A model generated the notes under the pieces. That model made no database searches and had not been told where the DNA came from. It was given only the letters and a program-made list of their open reading frames with translations. From Candidatus Doudnabacteria bacterium (GTDB lineage: Bacteria > Patescibacteriota > Doudnabacteria > UBA920): DNA of 64,000 nt. The DNA is taken from NCBI GenBank assembly GCA_963768175.1, contig CAVYGQ010000001.1:254305-318304 (forward strand). The letters run 5' to 3'. This document shows positions 1,754 through 4,413 of this stretch, piece by piece; position 1 is the stretch's first letter, and each line of letters starts with the position of its first letter. A program made the translations under genes and the position numbers.

Positions 1754-2782
1754 ATGCCCGGAATTAAGGAACTTAAAACCAGAATAAAGTCTATTGGCGG
1801 CACCCGCAAGGTGACGCGGGCTATGCAAATGGTCAGCGCGGCCAAAATGCGCAAGAGCCAAGACGCGACCATGAGAAGCCGCAGTTACGCTTCTTTGGCT
1901 TGGGAGTTGATTATAAGTTTAAGCGGTGTCATTCCCGCGCAAGCGGAAATCTTAAACCAGGATCGAGATTCCGGCTCGGAGACCGGAATGGCACAACAGA
2001 TTGCGCGCTTGCTCCAATCTTTCCCCAAGGCCTCCAAAATCGCTGTCTTAATTCTCACCACAAACAGGGGAATGGTGGGTAGTTTGAATGCAAATTTACT
2101 GATGATGGTGCAAAAAACAATTCAATCTGGGAACCAAGGGGCATCCTCGGACCAGGCAAAACCTAAGACCGAAGATGCCCCTTGGCTTGAGGCGGATATT
2201 ATTACCTACGGCCGCAAAGGGCGGGATGTAATGGTCAAGAGCCACAAAGAAGTTTTGGCCGATTTTGAGAAATTTGATCGCGTTATAACCACGCAGGACA
2301 TTGAGCCAATTGCGAATTTTATTACCAATCTATACCTTTCCGGAAAATACCAAAAAGTTTTGATTTTTTATAACCATTTTGTGTCCACGCTGGCACAAAA
2401 GCCGACGGTAAAGCAGCTTCTCCCGTTTGCCTCCGATGTCATTGCGAGGAGTGCATCCGACGAAGCAATCTTACCTAAGGATAAAAAGATTGCCTCGGCT
2501 GCACTCGCAATGACAGATAGAAGCACCGATTACCTTTTCGAGCCTAACCCCAAAGAAGTTTTAGAACACTTACTCCCGCGCATCATAGAATCGCAGATAT
2601 ATCAAACAATATTAGAAAGCGAAGCCTCCGAACAGTCCGCCCGTATGGTCATGATGAAAAATGCCACCGAAGCCGCTGACGATCTGATTTCCGACCTGAC
2701 GCTGACATATAACAAATTAAGGCAGAACAAAATAACGACCGAACTGGCGGAAATAACCGCCGGTAAGATCGCTGTTGAATAA
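1754..2782 (+). CDS. atpG: F0F1 ATP synthase subunit gamma
   Basis: N-terminus MPGIKELKTRIKSIGGTRKVTRAMQMVSAAKMRK is the canonical gamma start; carries an in-frame repeat insertion ([15 protein letters not shown]). Confidence 0.9.
   Translation: MPGIKELKTRIKSIGGTRKVTRAMQMVSAAKMRKSQDATMRSRSYASLAWELIISLSGVIPAQAEILNQDRDSGSETGMAQQIARLLQSFPKASKIAVLILTTNRGMVGSLNANLLMMVQKTIQSGNQGASSDQAKPKTEDAPWLEADIITYGRKGRDVMVKSHKEVLADFEKFDRVITTQDIEPIANFITNLYLSGKYQKVLIFYNHFVSTLAQKPTVKQLLPFASDVIARSASDEAILPKDKKIASAALAMTDRSTDYLFEPNPKEVLEHLLPRIIESQIYQTILESEASEQSARMVMMKNATEAADDLISDLTLTYNKLRQNKITTELAEITAGKIAVE
2134..2185. repeat. Family-1 palindromic element (52 bp) inside atpG coding sequence
   Basis: ccaaggggcatcctcgg...ccgaagatgccccttgg: near-perfect inverted termini; the same core recurs at 3087, 21658, 18463 and 60782. 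Confidence 0.85.
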
Positions 2783-2876
2783 TAATTAATAATAAATCTT
2801 AAATCCTTAATCTTTAATCCAATTATGAACAAAGAAACAATATCACAAGCGACAAACTTTAATTAATTTTATAGCT

Positions 2877-2948
2877 GTCGTCCTGAGCGAAGCGAAGGAT
2901 CCCTTAACACAAGATAAAGAGATTCCTCACTGCGTTCGGAATGACGCC
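2877..2948. repeat. Family-2 dispersed repeat (GTCCTGAGCGAAGCGAAGGATC ... AGAGATTCCTCACTGCGTTCGGAATGACGCC), intergenic atpG-atpD
   Basis: Near-identical architecture to the copy at 22338-22407; related copies at 4955, 16640-16790, 23880-23945, 28520, 47425, 50505, 56905, 57765, 59453, 63495. Confidence 0.8.
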
Positions 2949-2973
2949 TAAAGAGTATTAATCAATCAAACTC

Positions 2974-4413
2974 ATGAATAAAGGAACAATCAGCCAAGTA
3001 ATAGGCCCCGTGGTAGACGTGCATTTTGCAAACGATTTGCCCGCGATTTATAACGCGCTGGAGGTGATAATAGAATCGGCAGATGCCCGAGGGGCATCCT
3101 CGGACCAGGCAAAATCCAAGACCGAAGATGCCCCTCGGTCCAGTCACGGCACCAAATTAACCCTAGAAGTCCAACAGCAACTGCCCGGAAACATCGTCCG
3201 CACCGTTGCCATGTCATCTACTGACGGACTTAAACGTGGCACCGAGGTAACGGATACCGGCGCACTTATTTCCGTACCGGTTGGAAAAGTCACGCTGGGA
3301 CGCATTTTTAACGTTTTGGGGCAGGCTGTAGACGGCCAGGAAACGCCTAAATCCGATAAAAGATACCCCATCCACCGCCCGCCGCCAAAGTTTACCGAGC
3401 AAAACACCAAAACCGAAATTCTGGAAACCGGCATTAAAGTTATAGATTTAATTTGCCCGATTTTAAAGGGCGGTAAAGTGGGTTTGTTTGGTGGCGCCGG
3501 CGTGGGAAAAACCGTAATCATCCAGGAATTAATCAACAACATCGCCAAGGCGCACGGAGGCGTTTCGGTGTTTGCCGGAGTAGGGGAACGCACGCGTGAA
3601 GGAAACGATTTGTACCACGAAATGAAAGACGCCAACGTTTTGCCGAAACTGGCTATGGTGTTCGGCCAAATGAACGAACCGCCGGGAGCGCGTGCCCGTG
3701 TCGGCCTTTCAGGATTGTCTATGGCCGAATATTTCCGCGACGAAGAGCACCAGGACGTATTAATGTTCATAGACAACATCTTCCGTTTTACGCAGGCGGG
3801 CTCGGAAGTTTCGGCCCTCCTCGGCCGCATTCCATCGGCCGTGGGTTACCAGCCCACGTTGGCAACAGAAATGGGCGAACTGCAGGAACGAATTACTTCC
3901 ACCAAAAACGGCTCCATTACTTCGGTACAGGCAGTCTACGTGCCGGCCGACGACCTAACCGACCCGGCTCCAGCCACAACTTTTGCCCACTTAGATTCTA
4001 CTGTGGTTTTAAGCCGCGCTTTAACCGAGTTGGGTATTTATCCCGCCGTGGATCCGTTAGACTCAACCTCCACAATTTTAGACCCGCTAATAGTTAGCCA
4101 AGAACATTATGACGTTACCCGCGGCGTGCAAAAAACCTTGCAACGCTTTAAGGATTTGCAGGATATTATCGCCATTTTGGGCATGGAAGAATTACCGGAC
4201 GAGGACAAAATTACTGTGCTCCGCGCCCGTAAAATCAGAAATTTCCTTTCCCAGCCGTTCGGAGTTGCCGAAGTCTTTACCGGCCGCAAAGGCGAATTTG
4301 TTAAACTTGCAGATACTGTCAAAGGCTTTAAAATGATTTTGAACGGGGAACTGGACAACGTGGCTGAAAGCGAGTTTTATATGAAAGGCGGAATAGAGCA
4401 GGTTAAAAAATAG
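2974..4413 (+). CDS. atpD: F0F1 ATP synthase subunit beta
   Basis: GGAGVGKT Walker A, DNIFRF, and a beta-family C-terminus; in-frame insertion [26 protein letters not shown] near the N-terminus. Confidence 0.93.
3087..3138. repeat. Family-1 palindromic element inside atpD coding sequence
   Basis: ccgaggggcatcctcggaccaggcaaaatccaagaccgaagatgcccctcgg; its termini differ from the atpG copy by compensatory changes (a/t -> g/c) that preserve the pairing. Confidence 0.85.

Follow-up and report, generated by a model that had tools for sequence, protein, structure and literature searches.

Introduction

Palindromic repeats inserted in frame are usually regarded as a peculiarity of Rickettsia. The Rickettsia palindromic elements (RPEs), designated RPE-1 to RPE-10 (Ogata et al. 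[quoted passage not shown] A full-text literature search, the coverage of which was incomplete, brought up no account of elements of this kind from the candidate phyla radiation (CPR). Here we analyse a stretch of 64,000 nt from the Candidatus Doudnabacteria contig CAVYGQ010000001.1 (positions 254,305 to 318,304; hereafter the window), in which a short hairpin-forming repeat lies within the genes for two ATP synthase subunits (atpG and atpD) and release factor 1 (RF1; prfA). We consider that it represents, with a probability of about 0.7, a lineage-specific family of 39-54 nt hairpin-forming interspersed repeats in Doudnabacteria-like Patescibacteria that behaves like the RPEs.

In both systems palindromes are interspersed in spacers and in frame within genes, where a conserved peptide is added at places that the fold of the protein presumably tolerates, neither type of element encodes a transposase, and both reside in a small-genome, host-dependent bacterium. 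The present repeat is nevertheless set apart by its size (39-52 nt as against 100-150 bp) and its host (Patescibacteria as against Rickettsiales), and it differs further in that unrelated palindrome families occupy the same loops of close relatives and that one orthologous copy is much better conserved than are synonymous sites. We know of no report of such loop turnover, or of conservation above the synonymous level, for RPEs. The original prediction for this DNA had likened the repeat to the RPEs, and the comparison is apt as an analogy, while size and host place the repeat outside that group.

Repetitive extragenic palindromic (REP) sequences and REPINs are mobilised by RAYT (Y1/HUH) transposases (PMC3733652). 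Like the present repeat, REPs are short imperfect hairpins of similar size that lack target-site duplications and whose stem asymmetry could mark one strand. In contrast, REPs are extragenic, carry a GTAG/CGTC head, usually form inverted doublets and are accompanied by a RAYT gene, whereas every one of the 11 known copies of the present repeat is single, seven of them are intragenic and the 64 kb showed no RAYT gene. The ends of the present repeat read CCAAGG/CCGAGG or ACAAGG, and neither GTAG nor CGTC was present in the atpG and atpD copies, in which these motifs were checked.

Bacterial MITEs that form in-frame fusions include ERIC, BOX, Nezha and the Anabaena MITEs (PMC10969869). They share with the present repeat a non-autonomous nature, terminal inverted repeats and the capacity to be read within a host open reading frame (ORF), but are usually over 50-100 bp and have target-site duplications and ends common with an insertion sequence, none of which was found here. 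Hairpin repeats of organelles, such as the coding palindromes of Nematomorpha mitochondria (PMC6649704), the repetitive hairpin-forming elements of sponges (PMC2800124) and the organelle palindromes of Volvox (PMC2670323), resemble the present case in that GC-rich hairpins have invaded compact genomes including their coding sequence; they belong, however, to eukaryotic organelles, and many are far longer or out of frame. Bypass elements (T4 gene 60 and the byps of Magnusiomyces) combine a frame break or stop codon with matching flanking codons, a combination that the present repeat lacks.

A hairpin repeat in the window

The window contains five copies of the repeat, all of which lie where the original prediction had placed them. 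The long form (52 nt) occurs at three sites, namely in atpG (2134-2185, plus strand; -32.7 kcal/mol, z -6.2) and atpD (3087-3138, plus strand; -33.5 kcal/mol), each with an imperfect stem of 17 bp and a loop of 18 nt, and as a diverged copy in the 5' leader of greA (21658-21709, plus strand; -30.7 kcal/mol). The short form (39-43 nt) is represented by two near-identical perfect hairpins, one of 39 nt situated 3' of pheS (18463-18501, no strand assigned; -31.1 kcal/mol), which has the outer 13 bp of the stem in common with the long form, and one of 43 nt within prfA (60780-60822, minus strand; -37.8 kcal/mol). Terminal inverted repeats of 13-17 bp are common to both forms. Stems in the window copies span 17-21 bp, and all five copies folded with energies of -31 to -38 kcal/mol (z -4.5 to -7.5 relative to shuffled controls).

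The core GGGGCATCC was found seven times in the window as against 0.65 expected, and none of 100 shuffles reached seven. A search with the 13-mer of the outer stem, CAAGGGGCATCCT, allowing up to two mismatches, returned exactly five left and five right arms, which were those of the five copies, and the 17-bp arms were recovered by independent inverted-repeat finding. A solitary GGATGCCCC at 41816, for which there is no second arm, is probably a chance occurrence. Rfam returned no family above threshold for the repeat, only sub-threshold matches to generic hairpins.

Minor details of the original prediction required correction. The copy following pheS begins 1 nt past the stop codon and not 2 nt, and the in-frame hairpin of prfA, described as 39 bp at 60782-60820 in inverted orientation, was found to be a longer perfect palindrome. 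Its 39-nt core matches the pheS copy except at the central base, and even that base agrees once the prfA copy is read on its own mRNA, which makes the inversion no more than nominal. The greA-leader copy has its arms in the reverse-complement state and its loop motif, CCTAAG, in the forward orientation.

The coding copies are insertions

The inserts in atpG (gene 1754-2782, plus strand) and atpD (gene 2974-4413, plus strand) encode GASSDQAK-type peptides, the atpG copy being read in the frame designated f2, and the peptides encoded by the inserts include GASSDQAK and TEDAPWLEADIITYGR. AtpG comprises 342 aa as compared with about 290 in relatives without inserts, and AtpD 479 aa as compared with 453-457. 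The prfA gene lies at 60215-61336 on the minus strand; its true start is the Met at 61336, which gives a protein of 373 aa, and the 499-aa ORF at this locus results from upstream read-through beyond that start. Since 52 nt is not a multiple of three, the net insert of the long form must amount to 51 or 54 nt, or must take in flanking bases.

Orthologues were aligned for each of the three proteins. The AtpD loop, which is bounded by ...NALE(V/I) and KLTLEVQQQ, has 6-7 residues in 62 of 121 sequences (120 Patescibacteria relatives and the query) and 30 residues in the window, and solved beta subunits do not contain the inserted segment. In the case of AtpG, one relative (L125) has a gamma subunit of 293 aa without any insert, and gamma subunits in the Protein Data Bank (PDB) are gapped at this position. 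RF1 has three residues where the window has 15, both in all of the 50 best orthologue representatives and in the RF1s of the PDB, and the extra segment is missing even from the closest representative (P0128, 74% identical). It occupies a domain 2 loop that precedes the P-x-T motif by about 20 residues.

In AlphaFold models the inserts appeared as low-confidence coil flanked by confident elements. Residues 34-59 of AtpD were modelled as coil (pLDDT 29-39) between strands E27-33 and E60-70 of the N-terminal beta-barrel, and residues 172-186 of RF1 as coil of reduced pLDDT in a model with a mean of 92. Judged by these alignments, the coding copies are lineage-specific insertions relative to orthologues, situated in length-variable loops or interdomain linkers of proteins that are highly conserved elsewhere. 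Taken together with the copies in related genomes described below, the hosts comprise the N-terminal barrels of AtpA and AtpD, the globular domain of AtpG, domain 2 of RF1, the linker of CarA and a XerC-like recombinase. The peptides claimed by the original prediction for atpG, atpD and prfA were reproduced by translation of the frames, and its proposal that these segments are insertions, together with the loop position and the further copies that it had asked to be checked, was borne out by the orthologue alignments, by the AlphaFold coil of AtpD and RF1 together with the PDB gaps, and by the metagenome contigs described next.

Copies in related genomes

A pattern specific for the repeat was used to scan JGI metagenomes, and six contigs from related bacteria were found to carry it, four of the six copies lying inside genes. 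One is in atpA (L118) of a relative of 78% nucleotide identity, at a site that is empty in the window and in the closest relative (L124), and another is in atpD of this same relative (L119), at the same place as the window copy. The remaining coding copies are in carA (L122), in the linker between its two domains as judged by Pfam boundaries, and in the gene of a XerC-like recombinase (L120), while the two others lie directly 3' of a peptidase gene (L121) and in a spacer (L123). The nine long copies share 69-96% pairwise identity, and the five of them in atpG, atpD, atpA and carA are 87-96% identical over 52 nt, including the non-palindromic loop of 18 nt. The same strain is represented in an independent assembly by a Logan contig that is 99.95% identical to the window over 1.9 kb, with the greA-leader copy included. 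These seven contigs exclude an assembly artefact.

The host is a member of the Patescibacteria, and its best relatives by AtpD bear the names Candidatus Doudnabacteria or Patescibacteria group. Exact matches on record were found for GreA and for none of the window's AtpD, AtpG, RF1 and RpsB, and viral contigs and phage genomes contained no copies of the repeat. A search of 5.8 billion proteins with concatenated insert peptides gave no match, but it also missed a known database peptide (P0019) and thus says nothing about rarity.

A looser pattern, GGGGCATCYT-N4-34-ARGATGCCCC, matched at least 117 unrelated hairpins from many phyla in a genome collection, and the 9-nt core by itself therefore does not define a family. 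Two matches of this pattern in the CPR are in frame. Both are unrelated hairpins with the GGGGCATCC core, one situated in TypA/BipA of a Nomurabacteria metagenome-assembled genome (MAG) (L081 3128-3161), where it occupies the linker that joins the GTPase domain to domain 2, and the other in the class II fructose-bisphosphate aldolase of a Saccharibacteria MAG (L034 1586-1613). Open frames were seen in four of five CPR matches and in 29 of 96 others, a comparison that is confounded by GC content and carries little weight. Six generic GGGGCATC hairpin matches (L017, L033, L046, L058, L061 and L094) came from a single Terrimicrobiaceae MAG, SO_2016_LW3_74, which suggests that this genome has a separate hairpin repeat family.

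Conservation of the hairpin

Among the nine long copies, 13 of the 17 stem pairs are invariant. The compensatory difference (A:T or G:C) by which, according to the original prediction, the ends of the atpG copy depart from those of the atpD copy was confirmed and recurs among the nine, stem pair 11-59 being A:U in five copies, G:C in the other four and intermediate in none, and its covariation score was reached by none of 500 shuffles. A C.A mismatch is kept in eight of the nine copies.

The atpD copies of the window and L119 are both preceded by the extra residues IESA, which suggests, as far as the sequences can tell, that they go back to a single ancestral insertion. Within the copy, one of 17 third codon positions differs between the two and none of the stem positions, while the flanks differ at 80 of 168 (48%; P = 2.8e-4). 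Selection at the level of the protein alone cannot explain such conservation, which calls for selection on the nucleotides, for gene conversion between copies or for insertion more than once. The conserved stem, together with the strictly covarying pair and the retained mismatch, indicates that the hairpin itself matters, and it could be the substrate of a copying enzyme, or be homogenised by gene conversion, or both.

These features also fit a cis-acting element under selection, for example a site in the DNA to which a protein binds or an mRNA structure with a role in stability, pausing or processing, with in-frame coding as a mere constraint. Besides the invariant stems of the orthologous atpD copies amid neighbouring third positions of which nearly half differ, and the covarying pair and conserved mismatch, it is in keeping with this explanation that all five window copies are in transcribed regions, among them a 5' leader and a 3' untranslated region. 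However, the copies are not placed consistently with respect to where genes begin or end, and Rfam offered no match above its threshold. Furthermore, L124, the AtpD of which is 90% identical to that of the window (flanking DNA 80-82% identical by BLAST), has none of this repeat family in 10.5 kb; in it, the same loops of AtpD and of AtpG are taken up by unrelated palindromes. Most relatives have nothing at these sites, so that no host gene needs the repeat. A cis-acting role, which overlaps in part with the RPE-like family that we favour, is therefore rather improbable.

Reading frames and read-through

Four of the six frames of the atpG copy are open. The grand average of hydropathy (GRAVY) of the encoded peptide is -1.2 to -1.8 in frame f2 and about -2 in f3 (KGHPR...PKMPL), as compared with -0.05 to -0.65 in the intermediate frame r2 and +0.1 to +0.9 in the hydrophobic frame r1. 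Of the long form, each of the five independent coding insertions is read in f2 or f3 (GRAVY -1.2 to -2.0), and the open r1 and r2 are used by none. Such a bias would be pointless if the hairpin were cut from the mRNA or bypassed by ribosomes; it favours read-through and suggests that the inserts are translated.

Removal of the inserts before or during translation had to be considered, by excision of the hairpin from the mRNA or by bypassing, as in T4 gene 60 (with its gap of 50 nt) or the short mobile inserts of Magnusiomyces mitochondrial genes. CPR bacteria are known to excise intervening sequences from their rRNA, the present hairpins are very stable (-31 to -38 kcal/mol), the length of 52 nt is not divisible by three, and the atpA copy of L118, with a net gain of 53 nt, is out of frame. 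That same atpA has at least four further frameshifts, however, and its frame break, most likely a sequence error, was rejected as evidence of bypassing. On reliable contigs every coding copy keeps the reading frame, is free of stop codons and uses a hydrophilic frame, and matching take-off and landing codons were found neither at the atpG copy (AAC/CTT) nor at the atpD copy (GCC/TCC). We thus regard excision or bypassing as very unlikely.

Other palindromes in the same loops

The original prediction had missed that the loops in question are occupied by many families in related genomes. In addition to the unrelated palindromes of L124, other relatives have further palindrome-encoded peptides in the AtpD loop, such as IARSAADEAI...KKIASDALAMT, which belongs to the same family as another palindrome in the window's own atpG (2437-2515). 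In five AtpD genes the distance from the conserved ALEV codons to the start of the insert ranges from 0 to +24 nt, and with offsets varying in this manner the occupancy of the loop looks like a tolerance filter and not a precise target site. The repeat is thus one of many palindrome families in Patescibacteria that occupy the same loops.

The occurrence of different palindromes at the same loops in different relatives might also indicate that palindromes arise locally, by template switching or inverted duplication at fragile loop-coding sites when DNA is replicated or repaired, and are not mobile, with their likeness being due to convergence or gene conversion. Some inserts, for example the one that L125 has in atpD, are of small size and had no counterpart in the rest of the limited sample of DNA. 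Yet copies at unrelated loci (atpG, atpD, atpA, carA and spacers) are 87-96% identical over 52 nt, and the likeness of their common non-palindromic loop cannot come from local palindrome formation, which makes a local origin highly improbable. Finally, the idea that ancestral loop sequence or an artefact of assembly accounts for the segments, in favour of which nothing was found, is refuted by the orthologue alignments and by independent contigs from other samples and retains practically no probability.

The palindrome at 2437-2515, VIARSASDEAILPKDKKIASAALAMT, is the second in-frame palindrome of atpG and is unrelated to the first; it folds at -36.7 kcal/mol (z -6.5) and is missing from the closest relative, and its family is also present in the AtpD loop of the Patescibacteria P0019/L127 and P0022. 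A third segment of atpG (1925-2010, aa 58-85) is missing from orthologues and contains GTCATTCC...GGAATG-type inverted motifs; it was left out as a family member for want of significant structure (z -1.75), and at its site the closest relative carries another segment of greater length. RF1 likewise has a second extra segment in comparison with its closest homologue (10 residues, about 61240-61290), which resembles a strong spacer hairpin at 41637-41700 with a GTCCGCCGAAGCTTCAGCGAAGGCGGA core, and which was left out because of its weak palindrome (z -0.76).

Spread of the repeat and its implications

The presence of the atpA copy in one relative only, and of the prfA copy in this lineage only, points to gain of copies, from which we infer mobility. 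An RPE-like family would spread by copying into new sites, with insertion lacking specificity at the nucleotide level and selection retaining only those copies that are in frame, in either hydrophilic frame, in tolerant surface loops; retained copies would be translated as 13-18 extra disordered residues. Mobilisation might be due to an enzyme of the HUH/Y1 type that recognises single-strand hairpins and whose gene lies at another place in the genome, a low-confidence guess prompted by the lack of target-site duplications and the asymmetry of the hairpin.

Several observations weigh against this explanation. No transposase or Y1/HUH gene was detected by Pfam scan among the 55 ORFs of the window or in the relatives' loci L124-L127, direct repeats indicative of target-site duplication were absent at each of the 11 copies, and the copies have no common flanking motif. 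Among the window ORFs there was also no parent insertion sequence with the same ends. The biases in frame and orientation rest on five independent coding insertions among the 11 copies, and the AtpD model is poor overall (mean pLDDT 62.8), with only its N-terminal domain reliable. The covarying pair may trace to one event that defined a subfamily. Lastly, a tolerated selfish element in a loop, if ancestral to the window and L119, should have decayed, which the atpD copy has not.

It is conceivable, though we put it forward only tentatively, that Patescibacteria host a phylum-wide system of many short hairpin families that rewrite the same tolerant loops (F1 alpha, beta and gamma, RF1, CarA, TypA and aldolase), the hairpins being actively maintained by hairpin-dependent copying, homing or gene conversion, or by selection for a function. 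Active maintenance of this kind would account for an old orthologous copy that is near-identical amid near-saturated synonymous sites.

If the RPE-like family is confirmed, a second, unrelated lineage with reduced genomes tolerates selfish hairpins in ATP synthase and a release factor, and some of the differences in length among CPR core proteins derive from repeats and are not adaptive, with consequences for annotation, alignment-based phylogeny and structure prediction. Hairpin repeats would also break short-read assemblies, and an activity that mobilises or homogenises hairpins of 40-50 nt would operate where recognisable mobile-element genes are very few. Two features go beyond the RPE precedent, namely that different families replace one another in a given loop and that the atpD copy common to the window and L119 is puzzlingly well conserved. 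The conserved element amid diverged flanks offers a concrete handle on selection versus gene conversion.

Non-coding copies and other features of the window

The copy 3' of pheS lies upstream of a terminator-like hairpin at 18532-18561. Its own role as a terminator was rejected, as no T-tract follows the copy and this separate hairpin is located downstream. The Phe-tRNA synthetase (17247-18461) is a single chain of 404 aa with a class II core and a C-terminal FDX-ACB domain; pheT is not adjacent, the next gene being gyrB, and the architecture resembles that of the monomeric mitochondrial enzyme. Upstream of the greA-leader copy, a sigma-70-like promoter with an 11/12 match is present at 21594-21622. 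The start of greA is most likely at 21771 (gene 21771-22232), which places the copy in the 5' leader, and this copy is identical in an independent assembly (L128).

Additional hairpin families were noted in the window. A hairpin of the form GTCGTCCTGAGCGAAGCGAAGGATC ... GATTCCTCACTGCGTTCGGAATGAC occurs in the atpG-atpD spacer (2876-2950), where it is missing from the closest relative, and upstream of lysS (22337-22400), with a half copy after map (about 47430-47450). Short-repeat arrays of the GGATCTACGGAT / CGGATGACAC type build long imperfect inverted repeats in spacers at 26517-26659, 33299-33405 and about 61340-61420, the last directly upstream of prfA. Pfam matches were 20-40 residues longer than their profiles in GyrB (18683-20755), ThrRS (47482-49311), methionine aminopeptidase (46665-47426) and CysRS (41922-43301), and these extra residues could represent additional inserts that derive from repeats; thrS has a GGCGGATCC-type hairpin close to its 3' end (47549-47612).

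The small ORFs between atp genes differ among relatives (window 1499-1750, L124 5630-5857, L125 9669-10004, L127 7961-8350 and 11510-11854). That of the window encodes 83 aa and has no Pfam match, while one relative has bAvd/23S_rRNA_IVP family proteins between its atp genes and another a GerE-type protein. Two adjacent adenylate kinase genes (45366-45938 and 45974-46609) are separated by a hairpin with a 20-bp stem (45936-45980). The tRNA cluster contains a direct duplication (6641-6704 and 6745-6808, about 104 nt apart) with a GC-rich hairpin in each copy, and an ARAGORN tRNA call at 6540-6617 has an irregular anticodon loop. Finally, dnaE (50566-54074, minus strand) is split over three frames, comprising the PHP domain (53208-54074), a middle part (52607-53149) and a C-terminal part (50566-52680); the single-base frame changes, near 53232 and 52660, are in homopolymer-rich sequence, and the split could reflect a sequence error, a pseudogene or programmed frameshifting.

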